From IMG/VR virus record IMGVR_UViG_3300045988_175861: a stretch of 50,843 nt of DNA; one strand, given 5' to 3'. Made by a program: the position numbers and the translations under genes. Positions within the stretch are counted from its first letter, which is position 1. Every line of letters begins with the position of its first letter. A model generated the notes under the pieces. That model was not told the DNA's origin and ran no database searches. It was given only the letters and a program-made list of their open reading frames with translations. Below are positions 16,481 to 39,449 of this stretch, one piece after another. The DNA comes from a virus.

Positions 16481-17089
16481 ATGAAAAGAAAAATCATAGT
16501 TATATTAATAGCCATAATTGGGTGTGCATCATTTGTATACAATTATAACAAGCTTTCAAAAGAAAACAAGCTTTTACAGAATAACCAAGAAGTTCTGTTG
16601 GCTAATAACAAATCGTATAAAGTACGTGATAGCCTCAATGCTATTAACGCAAAGTTGCTTGAGCTAAAGATGTCTGAATTGAAAAAATACAGAGAAGAAG
16701 ACTTAAAGTTAATTGATGATTTAAAACTCAGTAAATCTCAATTAGAAAAAATCATAAGCCTTAAAACAGAGACTATAAATAGCCTAAAAGCAGCACTTAA
16801 AGATTCTATTGTAAGAGATACAGTAACAAACCAAATTGACACACTTAAATGCTTCAATTACAAGTCTGTTTGGATTGACGTTGATGGGTGCATGCATAAA
16901 GATTCTGTAAATTTACAAGTCAAAAATAGAGAGAAGCTAAAGGTTATTGAAAGCTTAGAAAAGAAAAAATTCTGGTTTATGAAGTTACCAATTTGGCTAT
17001 TTGGCTACAAAAATAAGCAACTTGATGTAATAAGTTTCAATCCAAATACTACGATTACTGATATTGAGTATATTTCTGTGAGAAAATAA
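16481..17089 (+). CDS. Coiled-coil lipoprotein, spanin-like candidate
   Basis: 202 aa. The N-terminal signal carries a lipobox-like IIGC (MKRKIIVILIAIIGCAS), followed by a long coiled coil and a hydrophobic patch FWFMKLPIWLFGY. It is the last gene of the lysis region. Confidence 0.5.
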   Translation: MKRKIIVILIAIIGCASFVYNYNKLSKENKLLQNNQEVLLANNKSYKVRDSLNAINAKLLELKMSELKKYREEDLKLIDDLKLSKSQLEKIISLKTETINSLKAALKDSIVRDTVTNQIDTLKCFNYKSVWIDVDGCMHKDSVNLQVKNREKLKVIESLEKKKFWFMKLPIWLFGYKNKQLDVISFNPNTTITDIEYISVRK

Positions 17090-17179
17090 ACAATAATAAA
17101 CAATGATAAACAATTCTTTGTTTACAACTGAACATATTGAAAATGAACGAGTTAGCTATAAATAAACAATATAAACAAT
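17086..17179. repeat. Composite ATAAACAAT iteron element, copy 1
   Basis: Three boxes at an exact 10-bp period (17086, 17096, 17106), an inverted box (TTGTTTAC), then GCTATAAATAAACAATATAAACAATAA (boxes at 17162 and 17171). The same layout recurs at 38641-38733. Confidence 0.8.
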
Positions 17180-17428
17180 AAATTTGCTATTTGACTTAAA
17201 CTATAAAATGTGATTTTACAGTAGTTAAATAGATTAACATATTAAAAATTGACTTTTTATCTAGAGGCTTATAGGGAAATATAGTTTCTTTGTTCTTTTG
17301 TTTCTCTTCCATACTTAGAAATGTTGATGGTTTTATTGTTTATCATTGAAAATCAAGCAGTTAACTGAATTTCACAAAATAATATTTATTTTTATACAAA
17401 ATTATTTTTTCTTGTCAAAGGAAAGATT

Positions 17429-17436
17429 TATATTTG
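17429..17436 (+). promoter_or_regulatory. Bacteroidota-type -7 promoter box TATATTTG
   Basis: TTATATTTGCATTG lies 42 nt upstream of the 17478 start. The same extended sequence occurs at 42451. Confidence 0.6.
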
Positions 17437-17477: not shown

Positions 17478-17876
17478 ATGGAACAGTTTGATATTAATAA
17501 AATCATTGAGCACTACAAACTAGACACTGATGAAGTATCTAAAGTGCTATTTCCGCATGTCAAATACCAAAAGTTGGCATTTGATAGAGTGATAAAAGGC
17601 GAATCATCATTAGATGTAGACCAGTTAATTGAGCTTGCTAAGTTCATAGGCGTGCCAACATATGAACTATTCAATATAGATGCATGGAAATGCCAAAAAG
17701 AGGACAATTGCTTAGTTTTCTTAAAAGGAGAATTTAAATGCAAACTAAATTATAATGGAGCGTTCTTAACAGTCTATAAGAATGGAAAGCAAGTAGCTCA
17801 ATTCATAGGAGCTAATGGCCTATATACAGTAGAAGAATTTATAAATTATATTGATACATTAACCAAAAATTATTAA
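17478..17876 (+). CDS. Helix-turn-helix (XRE/Cro-like) DNA-binding protein
   Basis: 132 aa. The N-terminal part ...LDTDEVSKVLFPHVKYQKLAFDRVIKGESSLDVDQLIELAKFIGVPTYELF resembles an XRE-type HTH. It is the first gene after a 388-nt regulatory gap. Confidence 0.6.
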   Translation: MEQFDINKIIEHYKLDTDEVSKVLFPHVKYQKLAFDRVIKGESSLDVDQLIELAKFIGVPTYELFNIDAWKCQKEDNCLVFLKGEFKCKLNYNGAFLTVYKNGKQVAQFIGANGLYTVEEFINYIDTLTKNY

Positions 17877-22431: not shown

Positions 22432-24846
22432 ATGCCTACTATGCAAGTAGATAATTTAAAATATGATGGCATTCTAAATATTGCTACAGGCCTCAATGCA
22501 ACTAGTAAAGTTTGGAAAAATAAAAAGATACAATGGAGTGATTTTGTAAAAAAAGTATCAACTCCAACTGTAACTACAGAGACGTATAAGCAATTTATAA
22601 GTGCCAGTAAAGCTGACCAAGGAAAGATAAAAGATGTTGGCGGTTTTGTTGGTGGCTTTTTGACTAATGGAAGACGGAATAAAACAGACGTGCTATATCG
22701 TCAAATGCTAACACTTGATATAGATTTTTCTCACAATGACCTGTTTTGGGACTTTACAATGCTGTATGATTGCGCTGCTGTAATTCATTCTACGCACAAA
22801 TCATGCAATGACAAACCTCGTCATAGGCTACTGATTCCATTAGACAGAGAAGTATCTCAAGAAGAATACCAAGCTATAGCTAGAAAGATAGCAGGTGATG
22901 TAAACATTGATTTGTTTGACCAATCAACTTTTGATGTAAACCGTTTAATGTTTTGGCCATCAATATCTTGTGATTCTGAATACTATTTTGAATATCAAGA
23001 TGGCCCGTTCCTAAAAGCTGATTCTGTACTTAGTACTTATAATGATTGGCATAATACTGGTGAATGGCCAACAGCATCTGATAGCACAGACACAATACTT
23101 GCTGCTATAAAAAAACAAGAAGACCCAGAACAGAAAAAAGGTATAGTAGGTGTATTCTGTAGAACTTATACAATCCAAGAAGTAATTGAAACGTTCTTGC
23201 AAGAAGAGTATGAGCCAGCTGGAGAAGATAGATACACATACACAAAAGGTTCTACAGCAGCAGGGCTTATAGTATATGATGACAAATTTGTTTATTCACA
23301 TCATGGAACTGACCCAGCAGGAGGCAGATTGTGCAATGCATTTGATTTAGTAAGAATACACAGATTTGGCCATTTAGATACTGGCAAAGTACAAAATGAA
23401 ACAGAAAAGAAAAGCTTTAAGGCTATGGAAGAATTTTGTACCAAAGACGCAAAGACTAAACGCCAAATTGCAAATGAGAAATTTGCTGATGCCAAGTTTG
23501 AATTTGCACAAGACTTACCAGCAGAAGATATAGACCATGAAGATAATCTTGATTGGGTTGAACAGCTTGAAGCCAACACTAAAGGAGAATATGTAAATTC
23601 TGCAAATAATATAAATATAATAATACAAAATGATAAACTGCTTAAAGATGCATTTAGGTTCAATCTATTTGATAGCAAAAAATACATTACGCATTCATTG
23701 CCATGGAGGACTGTAGATGTAAGTGAGCCACTGAGAGATGTAGATTATGCAGGAATTAGAAATTACATAGAATGCGTGTATGGAATTGTTGCAAGTCAAA
23801 AGGTTGACGACTCTTTAGCTCTTGAGTTCGAAAAGAAGAAATTCCACCCAATTGTTGATTATATCAAATCTTTGAAATGGGATGGTAAAGAACGCGTAAA
23901 TAATTTGCTTATTGATTATTTTGGCGCTGATGATAATGCATACACAAAAGCTGCTATTAGAAAATTACTTTGCGCAGCAGTTGCTCGTGTATTCAATCCA
24001 GGATGCAAATTTGATTTAGCACTGATACTATCAGGTGAGCAAGGAACATACAAAAGTACATTTGTAAAAAAACTTGGCAAAGACTGGTTTTCTGACACAT
24101 TCACAACAGTACAAGGTAAAGAGGCATTTGAGCAAATTCAAGGTGCATGGATAATTGAAATTGCTGAACTTTCAGGATTGAAGAAAGCAGAAGTAGAAAC
24201 AATTAAGCACTTCATCGCAAAAAGAGAAGATGCCTTCCGTCCTGCCTATGGAAGATGTGTAGAGATATATCGTCGTCAATGCGTATTCTTTGGTACCACA
24301 AACAGTAAAGACTTTTTACGTGACCCAACAGGAAATAGGCGATTCATGCCAATAGATGTCAACATAGATTTTATTAAAAAATCAGTCAAAGACGATTTAA
24401 CTGATACAGAAGTAGACCAAATATGGGCTGAGGCATACCAAATGTATTTAGCTGGTGAGAAACTGTACCTAGAAGGAGAAGAGAATACTATCGCTGTAAT
24501 TGAACAGCATAAGCATGCAGAAACTGATGAACGCAGAGGCGTAATAGAAGAATATTTAAATACAAAATTCCCTGATAATTGGGCAAGCATGGACTTGAAT
24601 GAACGCCGTATATGGCTTGATGACCCATTATCTAAAGCAGGAACACATAAAAAAGAATTTGTATGCATAGCTGAAATTTGGTGCGAATGCTTAGGAAAAG
24701 AAAAGCCAGATATGACTAGATATAATACACGTGATATTAATGATATTATGAAGTCGTTAGCTGATTGGGAACCTGTAATGTCTACAAAGATTTTCAACAT
24801 TTACGGAAAACAAAAATACTATAAAAGAAAGGAAAGTCTATTATGA
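22432..24846 (+). CDS. Primase (AEP-like N-terminal domain) fused to a VirE/D5-type helicase
   Basis: 804 aa. N-terminal LTLDIDF, IHSTHKS and FDVNRLMFWP resemble AEP motifs. The C-terminal part has Walker A SGEQGTYKST and a VirE-like region (...WIIEIAEL...RPAYGR...FFGTTN...GNRRF). Confidence 0.8.
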   Translation: MPTMQVDNLKYDGILNIATGLNATSKVWKNKKIQWSDFVKKVSTPTVTTETYKQFISASKADQGKIKDVGGFVGGFLTNGRRNKTDVLYRQMLTLDIDFSHNDLFWDFTMLYDCAAVIHSTHKSCNDKPRHRLLIPLDREVSQEEYQAIARKIAGDVNIDLFDQSTFDVNRLMFWPSISCDSEYYFEYQDGPFLKADSVLSTYNDWHNTGEWPTASDSTDTILAAIKKQEDPEQKKGIVGVFCRTYTIQEVIETFLQEEYEPAGEDRYTYTKGSTAAGLIVYDDKFVYSHHGTDPAGGRLCNAFDLVRIHRFGHLDTGKVQNETEKKSFKAMEEFCTKDAKTKRQIANEKFADAKFEFAQDLPAEDIDHEDNLDWVEQLEANTKGEYVNSANNINIIIQNDKLLKDAFRFNLFDSKKYITHSLPWRTVDVSEPLRDVDYAGIRNYIECVYGIVASQKVDDSLALEFEKKKFHPIVDYIKSLKWDGKERVNNLLIDYFGADDNAYTKAAIRKLLCAAVARVFNPGCKFDLALILSGEQGTYKSTFVKKLGKDWFSDTFTTVQGKEAFEQIQGAWIIEIAELSGLKKAEVETIKHFIAKREDAFRPAYGRCVEIYRRQCVFFGTTNSKDFLRDPTGNRRFMPIDVNIDFIKKSVKDDLTDTEVDQIWAEAYQMYLAGEKLYLEGEENTIAVIEQHKHAETDERRGVIEEYLNTKFPDNWASMDLNERRIWLDDPLSKAGTHKKEFVCIAEIWCECLGKEKPDMTRYNTRDINDIMKSLADWEPVMSTKIFNIYGKQKYYKRKESLL

Positions 24847-25060: not shown

Positions 25061-25255
25061 ATGTTTGTTATTACTAGAGAAAAGCTCATATGGAAAGACG
25101 GCACGAGCGAAGTATTAGATTACAAGGGATTGGAAGAACAGCCTGTAGATGATATAGAGATACATAGACAAATGATTCATATGAGGCATAAAATGAGAGG
25201 GCATGAATTAGACAGAATATTACTAGAATACTATGAAAAGCCAGAAGAAAATTGA
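25061..25255 (+). CDS. Hypothetical protein
   Basis: 64-aa ORF, tightly packed in the replication operon. Confidence 0.55.
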   Translation: MFVITREKLIWKDGTSEVLDYKGLEEQPVDDIEIHRQMIHMRHKMRGHELDRILLEYYEKPEEN

Positions 25256-26961: not shown

Positions 26962-26962
26962 T

Positions 26963-27208
26963 ATGGTACTAGAAAGAAAACATATAAAAGCGATAAAGTT
27001 ATTAGTGATGGAGATTCTATATGCCAAACCTCATGGAGCGCTTGTTTCTCAAAAGGAATTATACTATATTGCGTATATTAACCTTGACTTCGTTCATTAC
27101 ACAGCAAAGTATCTTATAGAAAGACATATATATTCTATGATTAGAATGGCCGTTAGGAATAAAGCATACAGAAAATATACAAGGCTTGGCTACTATGAAC
27201 GCATTTAA
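26963..27208 (+). CDS. Hypothetical protein
   Basis: 81-aa basic ORF, the last gene before the modification operon promoter. Confidence 0.55.
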   Translation: MVLERKHIKAIKLLVMEILYAKPHGALVSQKELYYIAYINLDFVHYTAKYLIERHIYSMIRMAVRNKAYRKYTRLGYYERI

Positions 27209-27279
27209 AGATAAAGTTAATAATAATTAATTTAACAATTAAATAGTAGAAATTATTTTTATATACTAAAAATTTTTCT

Positions 27280-27287
27280 TATATTTG
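27280..27287 (+). promoter_or_regulatory. Bacteroidota-type -7 promoter box TATATTTG
   Basis: TTATATTTGCAATAAC lies 23 nt upstream of the carbamoyltransferase start, within a 100-nt AT-rich gap. Confidence 0.6.
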
Positions 27288-27309
27288 CAATAACAAAATT
27301 AAAATAATT

Positions 27310-29061: not shown

Positions 29062-29065
29062 TGCT

Positions 29066-29710
29066 ATGAAAAATACGTACTTCGTAGTTTTCTCTGGTGG
29101 TTGTTACAGTGGGAAAACAACTACCATGCAGAAATTCACAAAAGCTCTTGAGAATAAAGGAGTTAAAGTAAAAGTTTTAGATGAGATTGTAAGGAAGCAC
29201 AAGATACAATCTATTGATAAACTGAGAAAAAACCCAGTAGCTTATCTTGATTTTCAAAACAGAATAATAAATGAGAAAATAGAAGCTGAGTTATCATGCC
29301 TCAATGAAAATAGAAAACAAGTTGTAGTTTGTGATAGAGCAATTACTGATTCACTCTTCTATTTGCTATTCTATGTTGACAAAGCAAATTTGAATGAAGA
29401 GCAAATGGCACTCTACGCAAATTTGTATGAAAGTATAGACCAATATGCGAAAAGAGCATTCAGCGAGATATATGATTTGTTAATAGAATTTAAGCCAATC
29501 AATAAAAATGAAACTTATGATTCATACAGGCCAAAAAATATTAGCATAAATAAATATATTGAGTATAAGATGATAAACACTTTGAATGATGCTTACATGA
29601 ACACTTCTACAGACTTACAGGCTTTATATCTCGATTTGAATAAAGGCTCTTACGATGATTTACTTGAAGTAATAACGAATAATATTGCAAAACGATATGA
29701 CAAAGATTAA
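29066..29710 (+). CDS. P-loop nucleotide kinase-like protein (dNMP kinase or DNA 5-hydroxymethyl-pyrimidine kinase candidate)
   Basis: 214 aa. Walker A FSGGCYSGKTT, then VVVCDRAITDSLFY, which resembles the DR...D..Y lid region of dNK/AAA_28-type kinases. Confidence 0.6.
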   Translation: MKNTYFVVFSGGCYSGKTTTMQKFTKALENKGVKVKVLDEIVRKHKIQSIDKLRKNPVAYLDFQNRIINEKIEAELSCLNENRKQVVVCDRAITDSLFYLLFYVDKANLNEEQMALYANLYESIDQYAKRAFSEIYDLLIEFKPINKNETYDSYRPKNISINKYIEYKMINTLNDAYMNTSTDLQALYLDLNKGSYDDLLEVITNNIAKRYDKD

Positions 29711-30518
29711 ACATTTTAACAAGTTGAATGAATATATAACAAGCAATACTTGGAGAGTGTTCTTCAACCAGTTCTTAGACCAAATTCCGTACTCTGAATT
29801 AAGAGATAAGGAATATCTGGAAGTTATTGGAGCTACTTACAGAATACTGCCTGAAAACTATTTAATGAGTAATAACTCATCTTTAATCAATCCTAAAAAG
29901 TTATATGCATTGTTCAAATGGTATAAAAAAGGAGATAGCAAAGACACATCCATAGTACAATATTTTCCTGAATATGAGCATCGTGTTGATTTTTTCCATA
30001 GCGACTTCAATTCTAACTACGGAATATACGCATATAAGAAAAAAGGAATTGTAAGATGCGCGCATGAGCTGATTAAAAACAGAAATTCAAGACAAGCTTG
30101 CTTTATGATAAACAATAATGAAGCAATGTCTGAAGATTCTATTGATAAACTATGCACTAATGCTATAATGTTCTTCATAAGAGACAACATGCTCAACATG
30201 TGCATACAGATGCGCTCATCTAATATACTCACAATGCTTCCATACGACATATTTATGTTCTGTGTGTTCTATTATCAGGTTTTAGAAATGGTATCGTCAA
30301 AATACCATGACTTAGATACAGGTGTTATAACTATGCAAGTTGGCTCTCTTCACATGTACAAAAAAGATATGGAAGAAATAAAAAGTACAAAGCCTTTATT
30401 AAAAATTGGAATTGATGGCTCATATTTATATGGTGGTATGATACCTTATAGATACGCGCATACGAAGATTACTCCAGCGATTGAAAATATTCTCAAACAA
30501 CTAGCTGAAAATGGATGA
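29685..30518 (+). CDS. Thymidylate-synthase-fold pyrimidine C5 transferase, paralogue 1 (dCMP hydroxymethylase/methylase candidate)
   Basis: 277 aa. SNYGIYAY (YGxQW region), NSRQACFMINN (SRR...WNP region), catalytic-Cys segment KLCTNAIMFF, QMRSSNILTMLPYDI (aligns to QRSCDVFLGLPFNI) and GSLHMYKKD. Asp replaces the Asn177-equivalent residue. Confidence 0.75.
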   Translation: MQNDMTKIKHFNKLNEYITSNTWRVFFNQFLDQIPYSELRDKEYLEVIGATYRILPENYLMSNNSSLINPKKLYALFKWYKKGDSKDTSIVQYFPEYEHRVDFFHSDFNSNYGIYAYKKKGIVRCAHELIKNRNSRQACFMINNNEAMSEDSIDKLCTNAIMFFIRDNMLNMCIQMRSSNILTMLPYDIFMFCVFYYQVLEMVSSKYHDLDTGVITMQVGSLHMYKKDMEEIKSTKPLLKIGIDGSYLYGGMIPYRYAHTKITPAIENILKQLAENG

Positions 30519-30771
30519 TAATACCGATTTGCTGCTAAAATATGCCAAACAGAATAATGATTTTCTGAGGGCTATATACTCTCTTACAAAGCAAAATAAT
30601 GAATTGTTGAAATATATAAAGCAAGAGATAGATAAAGAATTTAGCTTAGAAAATCTCATAAAAGTGGAAAGCGTTATTTTTGTAGCAAATATAGTTGCTA
30701 ATATATTTTCAAACATTTTATATCATGATTTATTAGAAGACAAAAGTAAGTATAACAAAAAGCAAAAATGA
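30511..30771 (+). CDS. Hypothetical protein
   Basis: 86-aa ORF that overlaps both neighbours by a few nt. Confidence 0.55.
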   Translation: MDDNTDLLLKYAKQNNDFLRAIYSLTKQNNELLKYIKQEIDKEFSLENLIKVESVIFVANIVANIFSNILYHDLLEDKSKYNKKQK

Positions 30772-31265
30772 TTATGAAATTCTTAAAAACAAGAAATGTG
30801 AAAAGCCCAGTAAGAGGCACTGATAAGTCAGCAGGAATTGATTTTTTCATTCCAGAAGATTTTGAAATAATGAGATTATTTCCTGGTGACGATGTGCTCA
30901 TTCCGTCTGGAATTAAAGCCAATTTGCCAGAAGGTTTCATGCTGATGGCCGCAGACAAATCAGGTGTTGTTACATCAGAAAATGCTGTACTTAAAAGTGG
31001 AAGAGAGCCTAAAAAGGGCGCATTCAATTCAAATTTGATAATTGGCGCAAAGATTGTTGATGAAGACTATCAAGGAGAAATACACATACATTTAATAAAT
31101 GTTGGTAAGCATGAAGTTATGCTAAAACCTGGTATGAAGATTGCACAATTTATCTTAGTGCCAGTTGCATATGCTGCTTTAGAAGAAGTCGATAGCGAAA
31201 CTGAATTGTTCGATGCTAAGACAGCAAGAGCAGATGGTGGTTTTGGCTCTACAGATAAACGATAA
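30768..31265 (+). CDS. dUTPase-family (trimeric) nucleotide pyrophosphatase
   Basis: 165 aa with all five motifs: SAGIDFF, DKSGV, AKIVDEDYQGEI, MKIAQF and RADGGFGSTD. It has about 14 extra residues between motifs 2 and 3 relative to E. coli Dut as I recall that sequence. Confidence 0.85.
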   Translation: MIMKFLKTRNVKSPVRGTDKSAGIDFFIPEDFEIMRLFPGDDVLIPSGIKANLPEGFMLMAADKSGVVTSENAVLKSGREPKKGAFNSNLIIGAKIVDEDYQGEIHIHLINVGKHEVMLKPGMKIAQFILVPVAYAALEEVDSETELFDAKTARADGGFGSTDKR

Positions 31266-31278
31266 CACATAAGGTTTT

Positions 31279-31345
31279 ATTCTAGAGAGGCTTTTTATTA
31301 GGTCTAATATATTTCATTCTCAATTTGATTTAGCCTCTCTAGAAT
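31279..31345. promoter_or_regulatory. 14-bp perfect inverted repeat with 39-nt spacer
   Basis: ATTCTAGAGAGGCT (31279-31292) pairs with AGCCTCTCTAGAAT (31332-31345). No flanking T-tract. It lies between the dUTPase-family gene and the next ORF. Confidence 0.6.
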
Positions 31346-31375
31346 AGCCTAAGATAACTTAACTTATTTAAACAA

Positions 31376-31705
31376 ATGCATATGAAAACTATAATCGTAT
31401 GTTTAATGCTACTACTTGCTAATAGCTCATTTGCTCAAATATATATTGAAGATATTGATGAGAAAATAGAGCAATTGGTACAACAGAATAGAATACTGCT
31501 ACAAAAAGCTGATAGCCTTAATAAGCAATTAAAAATCATAATTGCAAGCAGACAAGAAGGTGATGCAATGATAAAAGCAAGACAGAATGAGATAAATTCT
31601 TTACTAGGAATAGTAAAAGTCAATATCGATATGATGTATGCTTTGCAAGATAGAAAAAGAATACTTCAACAGATAGAAAGCAATGGATGCAATAGTAATA
31701 AATAA
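31376..31705 (+). CDS. Secreted coiled-coil protein
   Basis: 109 aa. Signal-peptide-like N terminus MHMKTIIVCLMLLLANSSFAQ, then heptad-like sequence. Confidence 0.6.
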   Translation: MHMKTIIVCLMLLLANSSFAQIYIEDIDEKIEQLVQQNRILLQKADSLNKQLKIIIASRQEGDAMIKARQNEINSLLGIVKVNIDMMYALQDRKRILQQIESNGCNSNK

Positions 31706-31910
31706 TGTAATGCATGAATTATTGCTTAATAAAGATTTTATGCCTGGAAATGTAGCAATAAAAATGTGTGATATGTGTTCATTAAAAAGTTATTGTTGGA
31801 ACTTAAGCATTCCTGATATATGCGATACTTTGATAATGCAAGATGAGCATAAAAATGATTACAGGATGTTTAGAGAAATTGGCAAATTGCAAGGTTATTT
31901 CTTAGAATAA
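31683..31910 (+). CDS. Hypothetical Cys-rich protein
   Basis: 75-aa ORF with CDMCSLKSYCWNLSIPDIC. Confidence 0.5.
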   Translation: MDAIVINNVMHELLLNKDFMPGNVAIKMCDMCSLKSYCWNLSIPDICDTLIMQDEHKNDYRMFREIGKLQGYFLE

Positions 31911-31927
31911 TTAAACATAAAAAATGT

Positions 31928-32356
31928 ATGGCAAGAAAAACAGTGAATATTGACCCTCTTATAAATTCAGATTTATTCCTTAAGTTTGCAGGTCATTTTG
32001 CAGATAAGTTTAAAAAGCAAAATGGGTTTGGCAAATGGCTTGAAGAGTATAAGAGAATGGACAAACAAGGATTGTTCGAACCAGAGAAACTAAGGCAACA
32101 ATATATTCAAGTTATTAACAATAATTATAGACTTGGATTTGTACATAAACAAGCGATTGTGTATATTTGTGTACAAGCACTTGATGCCGTAAAATTTGGC
32201 ATAGAAACTAAGAATTATAGCATTTATGTAATATCAGGTGAAATAGCTATTGATGACAATGGATTGGAACTTAAAAATCTTAAGCATGATGACGCAATAA
32301 CTATTTGCAAATCTATGAATGAAGAAGCAGAAGAAGAATTATTTTATGTAAAGTAG
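31928..32356 (+). CDS. Hypothetical protein
   Basis: 142-aa ORF that starts with ATGGCAA. Confidence 0.65.
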   Translation: MARKTVNIDPLINSDLFLKFAGHFADKFKKQNGFGKWLEEYKRMDKQGLFEPEKLRQQYIQVINNNYRLGFVHKQAIVYICVQALDAVKFGIETKNYSIYVISGEIAIDDNGLELKNLKHDDAITICKSMNEEAEEELFYVK

Positions 32357-32361
32357 CAACT

Positions 32362-33060
32362 ATGATAGACAATACTATTAAAAACTTAATATTCTTAGAT
32401 GCAACTGATGCGTTTGAATATTTGTATGAATACATAATGAAATATGGAAAAAATACAAATATAGGGACTAAAGCTATATATAACGCTGGGTTTTATATAG
32501 CACAACCGCAAAGAAGACTTATAGAAACTAGATGGAGGAAATTCAGTATAACCTATGCAGAAAGAGAATGGCAATGGTATTTATCGCAAAATAGAAGTGT
32601 CAAAGACATAAAGAAATATGCCAAGATTTGGGATAAAATGCATGGAGGAGACAATATAGTCAATTCAAACTATGGTTGGCAATGGAACCGCAATGCACAG
32701 CTTGGAAAATGTATAGAACAATTAAAGGCAAACAAAAATACACGCCAAGCTTGGCTTACAATATTTGATGGTAAAGAAAAAGATGATTATGAATTTGACA
32801 CACCATGTACATTGTCTATAGGCTTTGATATACTACAAAATGAAAATGGCGATGATTTTCTCAATATGTGTGTAAACATGCGGTCTAATGATTTGATTTA
32901 TGGTTTTTGCAATGACCAATATTGTTTTTCTATGTTACAAGAATACGTTGCAAAAAAACTAGGTATCCGTGTAGGAACATATTATCATTTTGTTCATGAT
33001 TTACATATCTACGAAAAGCATTATAACTTAAAAGAAAAATATTATGAAAAAACTAGGTAA
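32362..33060 (+). CDS. Thymidylate-synthase-fold pyrimidine C5 transferase, paralogue 2
   Basis: 232 aa. NYGWQWN, NTRQAWLTIFD, catalytic-Cys segment DTPCTLSIGF, NMRSNDLIYGFCNDQY (aligns to QRSCDVFLGLPFNIAS) and DLHIYEKHY. Asp again sits at the Asn177-equivalent position. Confidence 0.8.
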   Translation: MIDNTIKNLIFLDATDAFEYLYEYIMKYGKNTNIGTKAIYNAGFYIAQPQRRLIETRWRKFSITYAEREWQWYLSQNRSVKDIKKYAKIWDKMHGGDNIVNSNYGWQWNRNAQLGKCIEQLKANKNTRQAWLTIFDGKEKDDYEFDTPCTLSIGFDILQNENGDDFLNMCVNMRSNDLIYGFCNDQYCFSMLQEYVAKKLGIRVGTYYHFVHDLHIYEKHYNLKEKYYEKTR

Positions 33061-33229
33061 AATTTTATGGGATTGTTTATGCTTTTTATATTTTTTCGTC
33101 TATGCATTAGGCTGGTTACTTCATAAAGTAGCAAGATTCCTATTAGCTATTAGCTATTATATTATGTTACAAAAAAGACCAGCAAATGATATTATGGAAA
33201 GCTTATTCAAATTCAGTAAATGGTTTTAA
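33044..33229 (+). CDS. Small membrane protein
   Basis: 61 aa with two hydrophobic segments (ILWDCLCFLYFFVYALGWLL, FLLAISYYIML). Confidence 0.5.
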   Translation: MKKLGKILWDCLCFLYFFVYALGWLLHKVARFLLAISYYIMLQKRPANDIMESLFKFSKWF

Positions 33230-33243
33230 AGTAGATTACGTGT

Positions 33244-34149
33244 ATGGCAATTACTAATAAAGAAGCAGCAAAATTCCTTCATGAAATAGAAGATTCAGAT
33301 TCTGAATATGACTCGCAGATGAAGGAAGAGATACGCAAGATACAAATTGAAGAAATGCAGGATGACCTTCTGCCAGAAGAAATGATGTCTGACAGGGCTT
33401 GGGGTTTTACTGTAAAGGCAGAAAGAGACGACAGCGGAGAGATGGTACGCGACGAATCTGGCAGACTTGTAATTACTAAAAGACCTGTCTTGTATGAAGA
33501 GAAAAAGAAAGAATGGGAAAATTACCTCATTAAAAAGAAGCAATTTGCAGAAAAGAACCAAGTAGCGAGTGAAAAGAGGCGTCTGCAAATCAAAAGAGAC
33601 GCGCTTGAAAATAACCTGAAAGACCTGAACAAAAGCCTGACGACTGAAGACAAAAAGATAATAATCAGTATAATGTCGGCTAAGTACCAGAACCTCATGG
33701 ATAAATCTCTCAATTACATTAATAATAGAATTGAGACACTGCTGAAGCCATATATTCCGCATATTGTGAAAAGCTGTTGGGCACAATATCCTGATATATT
33801 TAAAATAAATGACGGGTTCATGTATGAAGCTAGTAAAGAATATGGCAAATCTCTTGCTATATGGGTTACTCCTAACATTCCATTTTTCTTTTCAAAAGGA
33901 ACCGAAATGGATATGCTAAGAGAAACTAGTAGCGAATTTCTTTTCTACATTGATAAAGCAGTTGTTGCATATTATGAGCATAGAGACAAGTTAATTGATA
34001 TGCAATCCAAATATGCATTCAGGCTTACTAAGATTGATACATTTTTAAAGTTAGTTGAAAAGCATCCATTCTGGTATGACAAGTATGTCAAATGGCAAGA
34101 GCAGCAAAAAGTGATTAAAGAAATTGAAGATAAAAAACTTTCCTGTTAA
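33244..34149 (+). CDS. Hypothetical protein (last gene of the modification operon)
   Basis: 301-aa ORF with an acidic N-terminal half. A strong hairpin terminator follows. Confidence 0.7.
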   Translation: MAITNKEAAKFLHEIEDSDSEYDSQMKEEIRKIQIEEMQDDLLPEEMMSDRAWGFTVKAERDDSGEMVRDESGRLVITKRPVLYEEKKKEWENYLIKKKQFAEKNQVASEKRRLQIKRDALENNLKDLNKSLTTEDKKIIISIMSAKYQNLMDKSLNYINNRIETLLKPYIPHIVKSCWAQYPDIFKINDGFMYEASKEYGKSLAIWVTPNIPFFFSKGTEMDMLRETSSEFLFYIDKAVVAYYEHRDKLIDMQSKYAFRLTKIDTFLKLVEKHPFWYDKYVKWQEQQKVIKEIEDKKLSC

Positions 34150-34281: not shown

Positions 34282-34728
34282 TTATTTCTTTACTGCTTTC
34301 CAAAGATGGTAAATACTGCCTTTCTCTGTTTGAATATACTGTTTTCCATAATCATTGTAAAGAATTTTGCACACCTGTGGCTCTAATGGTGGTTTACAAG
34401 TGTTTGCATATCTTACTGTGCATTCACTGCTTATTCCATCCCAATTTATCTGCAAATACCAATTATTGAACAAATCAATATATAGATTGTATTGAAATTC
34501 ATCTTCTTCATATGGGATGAATAGAGCTTCTATGAGACCATTTCTTTCATCCAAATAGCACCAATCGTCATCTATATGAAAGCCATTCTGGAAGCGCCTA
34601 TTTATATCATAGACAAACTTCATATTTGCTTCATCAATCATAGGTTCATCATCTTTCATGTAGAAAAATGCATCATTTGGAATTATGACCCGCTCTGCAT
34701 GGTCATAATTCATAGAATAATTTGCCAT
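34282..34728 (-). CDS. Hypothetical acidic protein (leftward early module)
   Basis: 148-aa ORF that starts with ATGGCAA, with a TATATTTA box about 90 nt upstream on the minus strand. Preferred over the overlapping + strand ORFs. Confidence 0.65.
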   Translation of the reverse strand: MANYSMNYDHAERVIIPNDAFFYMKDDEPMIDEANMKFVYDINRRFQNGFHIDDDWCYLDERNGLIEALFIPYEEDEFQYNLYIDLFNNWYLQINWDGISSECTVRYANTCKPPLEPQVCKILYNDYGKQYIQTEKGSIYHLWKAVKK

Positions 34729-34817
34729 AATTTTTTACTGTCTATCTGTGTATTATTCATCTAGTAATATGCAATATTTTTTACTGCAGCCTAGACTACA
34801 GGCTACATTTTAACATG

Positions 34818-34825
34818 TAAATATA
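34818..34825 (-). promoter_or_regulatory. -7-like promoter box (TATATTTA on the minus strand)
   Basis: The reverse complement of TAAATATA lies upstream of the 34728 start. A TTTTCTGTTAAT element sits at 34852. Confidence 0.4.
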
Positions 34826-35073
34826 GAAAAAATATTTGAATAACCAAAGAATTTTCTGTTAATTATTTGTTAAATATTATAAAGCCACATTCAATATAAA
34901 AATCAGGCATTGCTAATATCTTATCTAGATATTAACCAGCATACTAGATTTAGCCTAGATTTAATTTAAATACAAGAAACGATAAAACCCATTGGAAATT
35001 ATAAAAGTTTCTAGAAATAGCCCAAAATGACCTAAATTGAGTAGAAATATTATGTTTAATATAAATGGAGGCA

Positions 35074-35113
35074 CAAAAATATAGGCAGGCTATCTTCACA
35101 GACTGCCTGCCTA
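35074..35113 (-). terminator. Hairpin terminator (minus strand) with AGTCTGTGAAGATA loop
   Basis: 9-bp stem TAGGCAGGC/GCCTGCCTA with a 14-nt loop. The minus-strand transcript continues into TATATTTTT. It lies directly downstream of the 35167..36249 gene. Confidence 0.75.
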
Positions 35114-35166
35114 CTGGTTTTCACCTAAACTTAATTATGAATTATTTAAACAGAATGGCTGGTATA

Positions 35167-36249
35167 TTATTCAGCTGAATTTTCAGCATTTTCTGCAGCT
35201 TTGAGTTCACTGTCAAGCTTTTCTGCAAGTTCTTTCTTAGCTTCTTCAAGCTCTTCAGTCAATTTTGCCTTCTTTGCATTCAGCTTCTCAATCTGAGCAT
35301 CAATTTGTGAAATTCTCTTTTCGGCCAATTCGATACTCTTTTCAGGAGTTAATTCCTCTTTGTTTTTTCTGTTATGCAGTCTTTCCATATATTTGGCATT
35401 CAGCTTTGCACCTTCTTCATCAAGCTCTTCTGCCAATCTCAAATCTTTATTGTCTGACACTTTGTGAGAATATTTAACAGGGAGACCTAATGCTTTCTCA
35501 TCTTCTGTTTGGTCAATTGCAATTCTGAACAGAATTCTCTTGCCTCTCTTATCTGCTACTAGTGATACAACTCTACCAGTTTCAGTCTCTGCATTCTCAA
35601 TCTTTTCTCCAATTGCTCCAGTCTTCTCATAAGCAATTGTTTTGCCGACATGGACTGAATTCTCCTCAATTGCCTTGTTAATATCTTCTTCAGCCCAAGG
35701 TTCTTTTGGCTGTGAATTTTCAGATGACCTCTTAGTGCCTCTTGCTTTCTTCGGCAATTCAACAACTTCATCTTCAATCTTAATGAGCTGAGAATCTACA
35801 GCTTTCACAATTCTCCGGCCATCATCAAGCTTAATGGCATACATTACTTTGTTTGACCTCTTTTCCTCAATGATTGAAACAACTATTCCTGGTTCCCAGA
35901 TTGCAGTATTGAAAGGCACAACTTGGCATCTATGGCCAATTGTAGTTTCTTTCAATTTTGCTGCAAGCTCAGAGCGCTCTTGGTCAGTCATCTTCTTTTT
36001 TGTTTCCTTTGAGCCACCTTTGCCTTCATAAGAGGGGTTTATGCCACCATTTTCCTCAGCTGCTTTGATTGCTGCCTCTTCTTCCGGAGTAAGTGGAGCT
36101 TCTTCAGCTTCAGCTACCTCTTTGGCTTTTTGCTGTCTAGCTTCAAGGATTGCTGTGATTTGGTCTTTCACTTCTTGAGTAGTTTCTTCACTGTTGAACA
36201 TTTCATTCAATTTCTTTGAACTCATCTGATTTAAATTCTTTGTTGCCAT
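35167..36249 (-). CDS. Hypothetical highly charged protein with an internal duplication and C-terminal coiled coil
   Basis: 360 aa, monocistronic with its own promoter module and terminator. GIVVSIIEEKRSNKVMYAIKLDD and GRVVSLVADKRGKRILFRIAIDQ are two copies of a small beta-rich module. Confidence 0.75.
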   Translation of the reverse strand: MATKNLNQMSSKKLNEMFNSEETTQEVKDQITAILEARQQKAKEVAEAEEAPLTPEEEAAIKAAEENGGINPSYEGKGGSKETKKKMTDQERSELAAKLKETTIGHRCQVVPFNTAIWEPGIVVSIIEEKRSNKVMYAIKLDDGRRIVKAVDSQLIKIEDEVVELPKKARGTKRSSENSQPKEPWAEEDINKAIEENSVHVGKTIAYEKTGAIGEKIENAETETGRVVSLVADKRGKRILFRIAIDQTEDEKALGLPVKYSHKVSDNKDLRLAEELDEEGAKLNAKYMERLHNRKNKEELTPEKSIELAEKRISQIDAQIEKLNAKKAKLTEELEEAKKELAEKLDSELKAAENAENSAE

Positions 36250-36256
36250 AATTTTT

Positions 36257-36356
36257 AGTTTTTTAATTGGTTATTATTAGCTTTAATTTGTTATTGCAAA
36301 TACGATTGTTATTTTTTAATCTTGAAAGTATTTTAGAACTTTTTTCTGTTAAATAA
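36257..36356 (-). promoter_or_regulatory. Leftward promoter module A
   Basis: On the + strand: AGTTTTTTAATTG (36257), the complement of the -7 box CGTATTTG (36297-36304), TAATCTTGAAAGT (36317) and TTTTCTGTTAAATAA (36342). The order and 20/45-nt spacings match module B. Confidence 0.65.
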
Positions 36357-36399
36357 TGTTTATGATACCTTCAACTGTTTTTCTTTAATTATCACATTG

Positions 36400-36407
36400 C
36401 AAATATA
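36400..36407 (-). promoter_or_regulatory. -7 promoter box TATATTTG (minus strand)
   Basis: Reverse complement of CAAATATA, within the 36250-36496 intergenic gap. Confidence 0.45.
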
Positions 36408-36496
36408 CATGTTTCCTGATTGTATTTTGTTAATTGCAAGTTAAAATTTTCTGGTTGTCTGTTAAATTTTGTTTTAGCATTTGCTGTTATTTCAAA

Positions 36497-36748
36497 TTAC
36501 AACTCAGCCACTTTTTCTAAATTATAACATGCGTTTTCTAAGACTCTATGCATCTTGGACCTCATTTCAGCTTCACTGATAACATTTCTTTTGAATATTA
36601 TTATGAACTGGCAAGGACTAACTTCTATTATAACTGATGAGCCTGAAAGCTCAGTCTGTAAGTTATCTACAATTATGCTATAATCACTGTTTCTAAGTGG
36701 TGCAATTTCAAATCTATAGACTACACAATCTCCATTCTCTTGTTTCAT
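36497..36748 (-). CDS. Hypothetical protein
   Basis: 83-aa ORF, the last gene of the four- or five-gene leftward operon. Confidence 0.6.
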   Translation of the reverse strand: MKQENGDCVVYRFEIAPLRNSDYSIIVDNLQTELSGSSVIIEVSPCQFIIIFKRNVISEAEMRSKMHRVLENACYNLEKVAEL

Positions 36749-36771
36749 AATTCTCAGTGTTTTTTAAATGA

Positions 36772-37077
36772 CTACAATAAATTAACTTCTCCTTTTGTTA
36801 TATCAAAAATCTGTATACCACTCAAAATATGAAACTTACCATACTTTGCAAGTCCTTTATAATTAACTATTTTCTGTGCATAATATCTATTCTGAGCTTT
36901 GCTGTAATTTATTTGATAAATTGAAGAATACCCACAAACATATAATTTTTCTCTTTCAATAATTTCACAAGAAATTCTGTTAAGTTCTATATTTCCAGCT
37001 TTGCATTCTATTGCTGTGTCTTCATACATAACATGAAAAGGGACATCTTCTGGTCTTTTGTAAATAGCTGTTTTCAT
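36772..37077 (-). CDS. Hypothetical protein
   Basis: 101-aa ORF in the leftward operon. Confidence 0.6.
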   Translation of the reverse strand: MKTAIYKRPEDVPFHVMYEDTAIECKAGNIELNRISCEIIEREKLYVCGYSSIYQINYSKAQNRYYAQKIVNYKGLAKYGKFHILSGIQIFDITKGEVNLL

Positions 37078-37089
37078 AATTATTAGTTT

Positions 37090-37185
37090 TTAAATTCCAA
37101 ACAAATGATAACTTATGATACTTATAAGGAGCATAGCCAATCCTATGGCTATGCATATATCTCCTTCTTTTTTATTGCTCTCCAT
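37090..37185 (-). CDS. Possible small membrane peptide (31 aa)
   Basis: Hand translation of the minus strand gives MESNKKEGDICIAIGLAMLLISIISYHLFGI. It fills the gap between two leftward genes. Confidence 0.4.
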   Translation of the reverse strand: MESNKKEGDICIAIGLAMLLISIISYHLFGI

Positions 37186-37199
37186 GACTACCTGAATTA

Positions 37200-37472
37200 T
37201 TACAGCTTATATTCTATTACTTTGTGGGCAGTTCTTGACTCAAATGCATTATGAGCAAACCCAAGTGTAGATGCCAACCTTACTGCTTTTTTCAATTGTA
37301 TCATTATTTCAAATGCTGCATCTTGAGCATTGTGTTCAGCGATTGAAAAATCTCTGTTGTTGCTACATTCATTCTGTGTCTTTTCAGCATTCTCAATATC
37401 AGCTAAGCATTTATTGATTTGCTTCATTGTTGCCTTAATCTCTTTTCTGTAATCTTCTGTCAAAGTCTTCAT
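37200..37472 (-). CDS. Hypothetical protein
   Basis: 90-aa helical ORF, the first gene downstream of promoter module B. Confidence 0.65.
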   Translation of the reverse strand: MKTLTEDYRKEIKATMKQINKCLADIENAEKTQNECSNNRDFSIAEHNAQDAAFEIMIQLKKAVRLASTLGFAHNAFESRTAHKVIEYKL

Positions 37473-37479
37473 AACTGTA

Positions 37480-37577
37480 AGTTTTTTAATTGTTAGTATT
37501 CTTTTGTTTTGGTATTACAAATATACAGGATAATTTCTAATCTTGAAAGTTTTTATAGTTAATTTTCTGTTAAATAA
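37480..37577 (-). promoter_or_regulatory. Leftward promoter module B
   Basis: On the + strand: AGTTTTTTAATTG (37480), the complement of TATATTTG (37518-37525), TAATCTTGAAAGT (37538) and TTTTCTGTTAAATAA (37563). Confidence 0.7.
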
Positions 37578-37579
37578 CC

Positions 37580-37594
37580 ATGCCATTGTGGCAT
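37580..37594. repeat. Palindrome ATGCCA-TTG-TGGCAT
   Basis: Perfect 6-bp arms. It is the first member of the TGGCA/TGCCA motif family that fills 37580-38320. Confidence 0.7.
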
Positions 37595-37783
37595 TAAGCA
37601 TTAATTCTTATTTCCGCATAATCATGCCAGAATGTCATATTGAAACTATCTCAAATCAGTTATCATTTAACGGCTTTATAGTGCTGTTATGAATGCAATA
37701 TTGGTGTGATATCAAATCAAAATTGTAATGGCATCATGCACACAGGTGATAATGACAAATTGGCATGTTGCATACTTGTAGGG

Positions 37784-37802
37784 TGACAGGATGACAGGAT
37801 GA
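37784..37802. repeat. 8-bp tandem repeat TGACAGGA x2.4
   Basis: TGACAGGATGACAGGATGA read directly from the sequence. Confidence 0.8.
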
Positions 37803-38006
37803 AATTTGTTGATGATTGTTAACAATTTTGCCTTGGTGCCAGATTTAAAGTGAATTTGAATGCCTGAATGCCATCATCATTTTTCGGACTAGGAAATTAT
37901 GGTAAAATAACTGCTTATTGGCTAATTGCCATCATAGCAATTTTGAAGTAACATCAAACTTACAAGCTAATAACTATTATTATATTATTGCAGCAATTTC
38001 AAATAT

Positions 38007-38080
38007 GGCATAATGGCATCATGGCAATTAGCTCAATGGCATAATGGCATCATGGCAATTAGCTCAATGGAATAATGGTA
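38007..38080. repeat. 31-bp tandem repeat x2.4
   Basis: The unit GGCATAATGGCATCATGGCAATTAGCTCAAT is perfect at 38007-38037 and 38038-38068, followed by a degenerate partial third copy. Confidence 0.9.
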
Positions 38081-38124
38081 ACAAGAATAGTAATAAATTA
38101 TTACAAGTAAGGCATTTTGACATT

Positions 38125-38160
38125 AGGCCCCTTTGTGCCTGAGAGCCGGGGCCTTTATTA
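38125..38160 (+). terminator. GC-rich hairpin, terminator-like
   Basis: 7-bp stem AGGCCCC/GGGGCCT with a 16-nt loop, followed by TTATTA. The T-tract is weak and it is isolated in an ORF-free region. Confidence 0.4.
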
Positions 38161-38200
38161 TAAATAATATGATGATGAGCTCTTTGGCAATCAGACTTTT

Positions 38201-38264
38201 TTAAGTTTTTAGGCTTTTTATTAAGTTTTTTAGGTTTTTAAGTTTTTAGGCTTTTTATTAAGTT
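38201..38264. repeat. 27-bp direct repeat (37-bp period), T-rich
   Basis: TTAAGTTTTTAGGCTTTTTATTAAGTT occurs at 38201-38227 and 38238-38264, with TTTTAGGTTT between the copies. Confidence 0.9.
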
Positions 38265-38640
38265 ATTTGATTTAATATTTTCATAAGCAGGCCCATAGAC
38301 TAAATGGCAAAATGGCATTTTTGCTTCCAAAAAAATTTTAACTATATTTCTAAGTGTGAAAAATGTTTAATCAATTTTGAGCGCTAGATTTTAATAGCTT
38401 TAAATTGACATTTATAAGTCATCGTTTTTAGGCTAATTTCTTTTCCAGAATAAAATAAAGCATATCCAGACTGACTTTTAAGGCTAATTATAATATTTAA
38501 AGTCAACGCGTGCGTACAAAGGCATCGCTTTACAAACCAATATACCGTTTATCGGTCTGGTAAAAAGCCACAATCTAAAATTATCCCATATTTGGCATTT
38601 ATTTACTATCATAAAAAGTCAAGAAACAAGAATTTTTCTT

Positions 38641-38733
38641 GTAAACAATGATAAACAATCGTAAACAATGTATCGTTTATCGATAAGTGATTGATTTTCA
38701 ATAGAATAAGCTATAATAAACAATATAAACAAT
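38641..38733. repeat. Composite ATAAACAAT iteron element, copy 2
   Basis: Boxes at 38641, 38651 and 38661 (exact 10-bp period), an inverted variant box, then GCTATAATAAACAATATAAACAATAA (boxes at 38716 and 38725). The architecture matches 17086-17179. Confidence 0.8.
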
Positions 38734-38804
38734 AATTATTCTAATAAAAGGGGTTTAATTATATAAAAAGTATATATCGTATAAATAGGGGGTATATAAC
38801 GAAA

Positions 38805-38850
38805 ACGCGCAGGCACGCGTGCGCGTGTACGCACACACATGGGCACGCAC
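38805..38850. repeat. GC-rich alternating pyrimidine-purine tract (Z-DNA-prone)
   Basis: 38814-38841 (CACGCGTGCGCGTGTACGCACACACATG) is a perfect 28-nt Py-Pu alternation. Shorter alternating runs flank it, and it contains the palindrome GCACGCGTGC. Confidence 0.85.
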
Positions 38851-38865
38851 CTTTTTAGCGATTTT

Positions 38866-39300
38866 ATTGTTTACATTGTTTATCGACGTAAAATTGGACT
38901 GTAAACGACTGATTTTTAATCACTTACAAATAAACAATATTGATAAACAATGATTTTTTTCTGACAATTTAATATGTTTATTTTGTTTATACTGGAATTT
39001 TTCTTGTTCCACTTGTCAAAATTTATCAGTGTAAATTTTACAAAGTGACACTTTGTCATTGGACAAAAGTGGTAAAATGGAAAATATACAATTTCGTTTA
39101 TTCCATTTTACTATTAGCCAGCCTAGAAACTATGTGTCGTTCTACCACTTTGCTGTCAAAACTTTTCTTGAACACTCACAACTGGCCCGGACTTCCTAGT
39201 TTGCACTTTTTATTGTTTATCTTGTTTATTCTATTATAACTGACTGAAAACTAGCAAGTTAGCGATAAACAATGCTTGTTTACTAGAAATATTTATTGTT
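38866..39300. repeat. Dispersed ATAAACAAT boxes, both orientations (about 11 copies)
   Basis: Examples: ATTGTTTACATTGTTTAT (38866 onward), AAATAAACAATATTGATAAACAATG (38929 onward), TATTGTTTATCTTGTTTAT (39208 onward), GATAAACAATGCTTGTTTAC (39263 onward). Confidence 0.7.
39040..39056. promoter_or_regulatory. Perfect 17-bp palindrome ACAAAGTG-A-CACTTTGT
   Basis: 8-bp arms read directly. It is nested within a second imperfect inverted pair (CCACTTGTC / GACAAAAGTGG) and followed by a 10-bp-stem hairpin at 39072-39111. Confidence 0.6.
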
Positions 39301-39388
39301 CCTACAAAATTTTCTCTTTTTCTTACCACAGCCAATCATCATTATACTTTTTTAACTTAAAAGACTTTTTTAATTCGCAGCCTTTATT

Positions 39389-39396
39389 CATATTTG
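39389..39396 (+). promoter_or_regulatory. -7-like promoter box CATATTTG upstream of terS
   Basis: TTCATATTTGCATAAC lies 54 nt upstream of the 39450 start. It is one mismatch from TAnnTTTG but has the same TATTTGCA core as the other boxes. Confidence 0.5.
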
Positions 39397-39449
39397 CATA
39401 ACAAGCTAATAATGAGAATTTATATAAACATAACTTTTAGAACTGTATT

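Follow-up and report, generated by a model that had tools for sequence, protein, structure and literature searches.

What is the composite repeat that occurs twice in the IMG/VR virus record IMGVR_UViG_3300045988_175861, and which protein reads it? The window, meaning the whole 50,843-nt stretch analysed here, belongs to a siphophage that is distantly related to the Bacteroides fragilis phages BF486P2, BF503P1 and BF503P4 (the large terminase subunit, TerL, is 70% identical). An initial annotation had described a composite element of roughly 95 nt, built from short boxes, at 17086-17179 (copy 1) and 38641-38733 (copy 2), and had suggested an iteron-binding initiator, a phage repressor or activator, or a terminase as its binder. 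Of these options the initiator fits best. The TAAACAAT boxes are probably the iterons of two Rep-type replication origins, similar to those of the Staphylococcus aureus pathogenicity islands (SaPIs) and other phage-inducible chromosomal islands (PICIs), and the phage's own primase-helicase (PriRep, g22432) would read them with its winged helix.

The boxes are enriched in the window. The 9-mer ATAAACAAT occurs 20 times, compared with 2.16 +/- 1.27 expected from 100 dinucleotide-preserving shuffles (largest count, 5), and the core TAAACAA occurs 46 times, compared with 21.5 +/- 3.9 expected (largest, 32). Fourteen of the 20 9-mers fall in two intergenic regions, 17086-17343 and 38651-39273. Six lone copies lie outside both regions, at 18937, 19651, 30108, 33072, 48560 and 50106, with the copy at 19651 located in the short gap between the genes for an exonuclease and an SSB (single-stranded DNA-binding protein).

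Every coordinate and string in the initial annotation proved accurate. The composite is present twice with the same layout, its three leading boxes starting at 17086, 17096 and 17106 and at 38641, 38651 and 38661, an exact 10-bp period, and the spacing from the first box to the double box differs by a single nucleotide (copy 1, 76 nt; copy 2, 75 nt). Copy 1 begins at a stop codon, with the TAA (17087-17089) of the open reading frame (ORF) 16481-17089 inside the first box, and the ORF of a 132-aa helix-turn-helix (HTH) protein, placed about 300 nt downstream, starts 299 nt past its end. The estimate of about 11 further boxes after copy 2 is roughly right, with nine exact TAAACAA cores in 38867-39282 along with degenerate ones. 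The composite is real but makes up only part of the element, being the left arm of a module of about 300-650 nt that also includes an AT-rich spacer and boxes on the opposite strand. There are about nine boxes in module 1 (replication side) and about 18 in module 2 (packaging side), arranged as follows.

17086..17114, plus strand: left arm of module 1, made of three direct copies of the iteron ATAAACAAT with a 10-bp period; a conserved column block in 18 diverse relatives.
17118..17125, minus strand: module 1 inverted iteron TTGTTTAC.
17136..17148: module 1 degenerate ATTGA-N3-TCAAT palindrome (ATTGAAAATGAAC), aligned with TTGAAAATCAAT of the relatives; ATTGAAAAT occupies 17136-17144 in this copy.
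17162..17179, plus strand: module 1 double iteron ATAAACAATATAAACAAT at a 9-bp period.
17180..17280: module 1 central spacer, 78% AT and unconserved in sequence; the proposed melting region.
17281..17300, minus strand: module 1 right arm, degenerate opposite-strand iterons (TTTCTTTGTTCTTTTGTTTC), where relatives carry ATTGTTTCTATTGTTTCTTTGTTTAC.
17335..17357, minus strand: iteron ATTGTTTAT on the opposite strand of module 1, with the palindrome ATTGAAAATCAAG after it.
38641..38669, plus strand: module 2 left arm, direct iterons GTAAACAAT (38641), ATAAACAAT (38651) and GTAAACAAT (38661) at a 10-bp period.
38674..38680, minus strand: variant iteron of module 2 in inverted orientation, CGTTTAT.
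38690..38702: module 2 perfect palindrome ATTGATTTTCAAT.
38716..38733, plus strand: double iteron of module 2, ATAAACAATATAAACAAT.
38734..38863: module 2 central spacer, AT-rich in its first 64 nt or so, with a GC-rich palindromic insert at 38799-38850.
38864..38883, minus strand: module 2 right arm, opposite-strand double iteron TTATTGTTTACATTGTTTAT; with 38716-38735 it forms a 20-nt inverted repeat, 95% complementary.
38930..38990: further iterons, a forward pair (38930, 38943) and a reverse pair (about 38974 and 38983).
39212..39282: further iterons, a reverse pair at 39212-39229 and a convergent pair at 39265-39282.

The same design is found in related phages. The relatives were taken from IMG/VR as 80 loci around TerL homologues, 80 around primase-helicase homologues, and loci with an exact double box; the 18-nt double box alone is unspecific as a family marker, as most of what the IMG/VR scan matched was unrelated AT-rich contigs and related phages accounted for only 23 of the 119 loci. 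When 18 diverse intergenic regions between the lysis and replication genes are aligned, the order is consistent: the stop codon, three direct boxes, an inverted box (CATTGTTTAC), about 8 nt, TTGAAAATCAAT and the double box (TAAACAAAGAAACAATAA), and then 90-110 nt or so of AT-rich, unconserved sequence, three opposite-strand boxes (ATTGTTTCTATTGTTTCTTTGTTTAC), about 100 nt, a TATATTTGCA promoter, about 45 nt and the ATG of the 132-aa protein. Most relatives show the identical order 5' of their packaging genes. The same-face spacing noted in the initial annotation is 10 bp in the window, but it relaxes to 9-10 bp among the relatives. Conservation of the boxes is extensive: in 70 of the 73 relatives with a replication-side region, there are 7-11 boxes per 520 nt, compared with 0.2-0.5 predicted from the rest of the locus. 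An automated search of the window and relatives detected 106 distinct modules, with the left arm arranged as >>><>> in 76; across all 106, the spacer has a median length of 107 nt (interquartile range 98-108) and is 79% AT, compared with 63% for the loci, and the right arm contains opposite-strand boxes (<<<). The L187 and L050 modules are near-perfect dyads, consisting of a composite, an AT-rich core and a mirrored composite.

Some lineages use a different repeat. The lineage represented by L050, L328, L373 and L377 builds the same dyad from GTAACAA boxes. In L347, whose PriRep is 47% identical to that of the window, a GTAACAA cluster begins 19 nt past the PriRep stop codon, and in L331 (PriRep 30% identical) a GTAACAA dyad is found 5 kb 5' of the PriRep gene. 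The arrangements in L050, L347 and L331 thus indicate that the module shifts among intergenic sites while staying with this replication gene set and carrying a lineage-specific repeat. Such mobility and such repeats are what an initiator paired with its iterons would be expected to show.

The B. fragilis phages BF486P2, BF503P1 and BF503P4 have no boxes in either intergenic region. A different element of about 70 nt (CCTATAATATAGG ... AAAGTTTCTAAGGAAAATAGTGAAAAC) is present at the same two intergenic positions in the box-lacking phages (L087, 4455-4545; L001, which is BF486P2, 17700-17790), and the two-site arrangement therefore persists despite the change of repeat. A k-mer search for a substitute iteron in BF486P2 gave no clear motif, its two regions sharing just the segment of about 70 nt.

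The proposed initiator is encoded within the replication operon, and its relevant features are these.

22432..24846, plus strand: PriRep (g22432), an 804-aa primase-helicase with a VapE-like superfamily 3 (SF3) helicase homologous to SaPI1 Rep; the proposed initiator.
24649..24843, plus strand: PriRep C-terminal winged-helix domain, about residues 740-804; the proposed iteron reader.

Residues 374-733 of PriRep match SaPI1 Rep (PDB 7PDS_A) with an E value of 1.7e-72, and the protein also matches the Pfam VapE-like domain PF05272 (E 6.7e-84). Since its N-terminal half matches PHROG primase families, PriRep is a fusion like the PriRep of SaPI5. An AlphaFold2 model of residues 700-804 (mean predicted local distance difference test score, pLDDT, 90.7) contains a helix-turn-helix followed by a beta-hairpin wing, and the only significant Foldseek matches to this model are the six 7PDS chains (TM 0.77-0.81, E 7.5e-5 to 1e-3), with generic winged helices far behind. 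No RepA-like protein was detected in Pfam, PHROG or NCBIfam scans.

In a presence/absence profile, no gene is common to all box-bearing genomes yet missing from the box-lacking BF486P2. Because no gene follows the boxes in this way, conserved positions were instead compared with the box-lacking lineage. The fraction of such positions changed in that lineage is 0.03-0.05 for the terminase small subunit (TerS) candidate, 0.01-0.07 for TerL, 0.24 for the HTH protein g17478, 0.34 for g17882 and 0.15 for PriRep, where the changes are concentrated at the C-terminus. The top four of 498 sliding 50-aa windows across the shared proteome are all in PriRep 721-800, where 17 of 32 conserved positions are changed, compared with 0.129 overall. 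The BF486P2 winged helix (740-804) is 47% identical to that of the window and the preceding helicase segment 64%, whereas the winged helices of box-bearing relatives are 62-77% identical, including those of L187 and L098, where identity in the helicase segment before it is only 45%. In the box-bearing phages the sequence of the putative recognition helix is TRYNTRDINDIM; in BF486P2 it is DRFNSRGIAEIM. This co-variation is supportive but not conclusive, because it comes essentially from one lineage contrast, the BF phages versus the rest.

The two ligands proposed in the initial annotation, the TerS candidate at 39450 and the 132-aa HTH protein at 17478, are probably not what binds the boxes. 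TerS barely differs at its conserved positions between lineages with boxes and lineages without them, and a role in packaging cannot explain the replication-side copy; the HTH protein is equally conserved in the box-lacking B. fragilis phages. The two-sided, AT-centred layout and the SaPI Rep homologue are what favour an iteron-binding initiator.

A plausible mechanism would have the PriRep winged helix bind boxes on both arms, so that the SF3 helicase could load itself on either side of the AT-rich spacer (about 100-130 nt), which would melt. The fused primase, together with the phage PolA, gp2.5-like SSB and exonuclease, would then continue synthesis. The palindrome within the arm would probably serve as an operator for the XRE-type g17478 encoded just downstream, linking use of the origin with the adjacent promoter. 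Both modules might fire, or one might be mainly an initiator-bound site, as proposed for oriR of phage SPP1.

Several observations weigh against this interpretation. Both modules are located at a conserved distance of about 100 nt 5' of operon promoters, a position that would equally fit a transcriptional role, and neither adjoins the PriRep gene, module 1 being 5.3 kb upstream and module 2 13.8 kb downstream. At 9 nt, the boxes are longer than the penta- or hexanucleotide iterons of SaPIs. The co-variation depends on the single contrast described above, the recognition helices of the two GTAACAA lineages are dissimilar, and a second protein, g17882, has box-linked changes at 0.34 of its conserved positions, clustered at N-terminal residues 5-19. 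Finally, the GC-rich insert drops the module 2 spacer to 62% AT, which is unfavourable for melting and hints that module 2 may melt less readily in the window phage. This insert (38799-38850) is 52 nt long, about 70% GC in a region that is 29% GC, and contains the palindrome GCACGCGTGC. Among the relatives, only the two closest (L002 and L003) have it. Either strand folds better than shuffled sequences (z -2.8 and -3.8), and the block has the look of a recent insertion.

The protein g17882 (17882-18313) has a 30-aa N-terminal strand-plus-helix segment, which differs between box-bearing and box-lacking phages, a Pro/Ala-rich (PAKPA-type) repeat linker of variable length, and a strongly conserved C-terminal helical domain of about 50 aa (…GAPSVTKLDPAKY…). 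It is widespread (195 database hits) with no known function, and several metagenome contigs break within its repeat.

The surrounding gene layout bears on the alternatives. Positions 1-119 and 50725-50843 of the window are identical, which indicates a circularly closed assembly and a genome of about 50.7 kb. One plus-strand operon, for packaging and structure, runs from the TerS candidate (39450) through TerL, the major head protein, portal, tail genes and endolysin to a DUF6549 protein ending at 17089, and a second, from 17478 to 34149, encodes the exonuclease, gp2.5-like SSB, PolA, the 804-aa primase-helicase, an SNF2 helicase and nucleotide-modification enzymes. A minus-strand block at 34282-37472 has no assigned function and is followed by a non-coding 2-kb region (37473-39449). 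Each of these operons has a -7 element of the Bacteroidetes type (TAnnTTTG) in front of it, at 17429 (TATATTTGCA) and 39389 (CATATTTGCA), and both composites therefore lie 5' of the two plus-strand operon promoters. The promoter elements and the HTH protein are listed here.

17429..17436, plus strand: -7 promoter element of Bacteroidetes type, TATATTTG(CA), of the replication operon; conserved in relatives.
39389..39396, plus strand: near-consensus -7 element CATATTTG(CA) of the packaging/structural operon, read directly; its TATTTGCA core is the same as at 17429.
17478..17876, plus strand: 132-aa protein (g17478) with an N-terminal XRE/Cro-CI-like HTH and a C-terminal beta-sheet domain; candidate palindrome binder.

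Within the composite itself, inspection by eye and pattern searches detected no canonical Bacteroidetes promoter or sigma-54 elements, except for an unconserved TAAATTTG overlapping the end of copy 1. A terminator scan gave no intrinsic terminator between the late operon and module 1, and the sigma-70 promoter and terminator scan gave nothing beyond shuffled expectation. In blastn searches against GenBank phages, the 2-kb intergenic region had no match, and the replication-side region had weak matches to six B. fragilis phages and nothing else. Nothing credible came from scanning 34.0-39.6 kb for tRNAs and Rfam families (E up to 1), and a structured-RNA interpretation was dropped for that reason.

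The left half of the non-coding region contains a second, unrelated repeat family (ATGGCA/TGCCAT boxes, 37580-38320), within which there is a perfect 31-bp tandem duplication (38005-38066). BF486P2 has similar CCATTTTGNC / ATGGCA boxes in the equivalent place (L001, 16990-17200), and this region could be a packaging-recognition region. Just 5' of module 2, a hairpin TTAGGCCCC...GGGGCCTTTATTATA at 38124-38158 is kept in most relatives (AATTAGGCCCCTGCCGCAGTGCCTGGGTGCCCCTTATATATAGTATATAG), with an unexceptional fold energy (z -1.0 to -1.4), and a 37-nt unit beginning TTTTTAAGTTTTTAGGCTTTTTATTAAGTT occurs twice in tandem at 38198-38268 with 97% identity. The replication operon also includes, at 27310-33060, a set of genes for base modification. 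They encode a Nol-like carbamoyltransferase (27310-29061), two thymidylate-synthase-like proteins (29685-30518 and 32362-33060, annotated in BF486P2 as dCMP hydroxymethylases), and AAA_28 kinase-like and dUTPase/dCTP-deaminase-like proteins. This set suggests hypermodified pyrimidines in virion DNA, which could also alter how the iterons are read.

The palindrome embedded in the arm is a separate matter from the boxes. The form ATTGA-N3-TCAAT has no mismatch at 38690 and one at 17345, and the copy at 17136 is degenerate. As ATTGAWWWTCAAT, it is not enriched genome-wide (four matches compared with 1.7 expected, a count reached by 12 of 100 shuffles), and what speaks for it is thus its conserved position only. 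That position in the arm is fixed across the family, including the box-lacking BF phages, which keep TTGATTTTCAAT. The g17478 model (pLDDT 88) has a five-helix XRE/Cro-CI-type domain plus a beta-sheet domain; Foldseek pairs it with, among others, C.BclI, Stl and the N-terminal domain of TP901-1 CI (probability about 0.99, with E only 0.02-0.2), and its Pfam HTH_3 match is weak (E 0.06). Because g17478 and its putative recognition helix are conserved in box-lacking phages that keep TTGATTTTCAAT, it suits the palindrome better than the boxes as a candidate ligand, and with low confidence it may be proposed to bind the palindrome.

One alternative is a transcriptional role: g17882, g17478 or another early protein would coat the boxes and activate, repress or loop the two plus-strand promoters, thereby co-regulating the replication and late genes. 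The modules do head both operons, their last boxes about 75-105 nt from the conserved TAnnTTTG; the first gene past module 1 is modelled as an XRE/Cro-CI HTH protein, the arm contains a palindrome of a kind typical for HTH dimers, and g17882 has the highest whole-protein fraction of box-linked changes, clustered in its N-terminal strand-plus-helix segment. Operator arrays would be expected to keep their sites within about 60 nt of the promoter, but here no box overlaps a promoter, most are 150-750 nt from the -7 element, and the array reaches 350-750 nt upstream. Nine to about 18 boxes forming a dyad around an AT-rich core would also be an unusual operator layout, and the L347 cluster, directly following the PriRep ORF, does not head an operon in the same way. 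As for the candidate proteins, g17478 is just as well conserved where boxes are lacking, g17882 is without a recognisable sequence-specific DNA-binding fold, and the strongest box-linked segment in any protein is the PriRep winged helix. As the explanation of the boxes, transcriptional control is thus unlikely, although a regulatory role is compatible with origin function and both may well coexist.

The two remaining alternatives involve a terminase or the host. If the boxes were TerS recognition sites (pac or cosB-like) marking the start of packaging, the location of module 2, 170-800 nt 5' of the TerS candidate and TerL, would be as expected, and so would the ends of relative contigs truncated upstream of TerL, 19 of 57 of which fall within 400 nt of module 2 boxes (about ten more within 900 nt; L002-L081), as though near physical genome ends. 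Other contig ends, however, including those on the replication side, fall in low-complexity sequence, at promoter A/T runs and in the g17882 PA repeat, and assembly breaks are therefore an adequate explanation. A clustering of ends at both modules through repeat-induced breaks was considered and dropped, as the ends cluster near module 2 and replication-side ends lie elsewhere; physical termini or repeat breaks may underlie the cluster near module 2. A packaging signal would also be a single site, but an equally conserved module stands beside the replication genes, 22 kb away, in the same 70 of 73 relatives, and in distant relatives the module follows the replication genes; the conserved positions of TerS, moreover, hardly differ between box-bearing and box-lacking lineages. 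A terminase site is accordingly highly improbable. A conserved Bacteroidales DNA-binding protein recruited by the phage, such as a nucleoid-associated or replication factor, might account for a box sequence that is unusually constant over phages with proteins only 45-70% identical, and for the lack of an accessory gene confined to box-bearing genomes. This too is very unlikely: the lineage variants (GTAACAA, or no boxes in the BF phages) track changes in a phage protein domain, and literature searches found no known Bacteroides factor with such a site.

If the boxes are indeed iterons of PriRep origins, a more elaborate version can be entertained, though only tentatively. Each module may be a complete Rep-type origin that heads a long operon and is fused to an HTH operator and promoter. 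Occupancy might then couple replication with the timing of middle and late transcription, or else the late copy might be an initiator-bound fork trap that switches the phage to concatemer synthesis beside its packaging genes. Such a trap, if real, would be a self-loading-helicase version of the oriL/oriR logic of SPP1.

Literature searches found no replication origin defined for gut Bacteroides siphophages, and the analysis offers two concrete candidate cis elements, together with a named domain of the proposed initiator, for a phage family of more than 100 gut-metagenome contigs. The iteron variants by lineage (TAAACAA, GTAACAA or none) constitute a natural system for the co-evolution of initiator-iteron specificity, and the modules, which mark operon heads, would be needed for a minimal replicon or for the engineering of these phages.

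Among known systems, the iteron origins of plasmids (RepA, pi and TrfA) are similar in having repeated initiator sites beside an AT-rich unwinding element. Their iterons, however, are about 17-22 bp and mostly direct, and are served by a non-helicase Rep with two winged helices that requires host DnaA and DnaB, whereas the phage boxes are 9 nt at a 9-10-bp period. In the satellite phage P4, a single multifunctional primase-helicase, alpha, uses its C-terminal DNA-binding domain to read iterons of octamer size at two separate loci, ori and crr; it belongs to a different primase/D5-type family and is likened to PriRep by description only. The ori-crr distance and the repeat layout are unlike those of the phage modules. 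Both alpha and its cognate site are described in the literature (PMC6092414).

The Bacillus siphophage SPP1 has two origins, oriL and oriR, each of which combines repeats with an AT-rich unwinding element; a single initiator binds the two (PMC6316719), and oriR, in the late region, has been proposed to stall forks and so trigger concatemer synthesis (PMC6316719). The window phage likewise has two distant sites of the same repeat-plus-AT-rich organisation, one in the late region. The SPP1 initiator gp38 is not a helicase, however, and needs the loader gp39 and the DnaB-type helicase gp40; its repeat sequences and layout are unrelated to those described here, and oriL is inside gene 38.

The closest parallel is with the SaPIs and PICIs. 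Published accounts of SaPI and PICI origins describe two oppositely oriented sets of short iterons around an AT-rich centre (PMC9371898, PMC6092414); for SaPIs the number given is 6-12 iterons, no fewer than two of them on each side (PMC9371898). SaPI/PICI iterons are read by the C-terminal winged helix of Rep, a self-loading SF3 helicase that in SaPI5 is a primase-Rep fusion. PriRep is homologous to Rep, with the same C-terminal winged-helix fold and a primase-helicase fusion as in SaPI5, and the short iterons of the phage, nine or more per origin, form two opposite sets around an AT-rich centre. The differences are also clear. A SaPI is a satellite island, whereas this family consists of apparently lytic Bacteroides siphophages of about 50.7 kb. 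The phage has two modules per genome, neither beside the initiator gene: a SaPI origin directly follows the rep ORF, but in the window the modules (17086-17357 and 38641-39282) lie away from 22432-24846, and only the distant L347 has the SaPI arrangement. The boxes are 9 nt, with a core of 7-9 nt, rather than 5-6 nt, each arm is a fixed composite with an embedded palindrome, and a promoter follows each module. The two modules are best explained as an origin type already known from SaPIs and PICIs; what would be new is its occurrence in gut Bacteroides siphophages, where it is duplicated, its arm is a fixed composite with a palindrome inside, and a promoter lies next to it. This would extend the combination of a self-loading helicase and iterons from Gram-positive satellites to the tailed phages of Bacteroidota.

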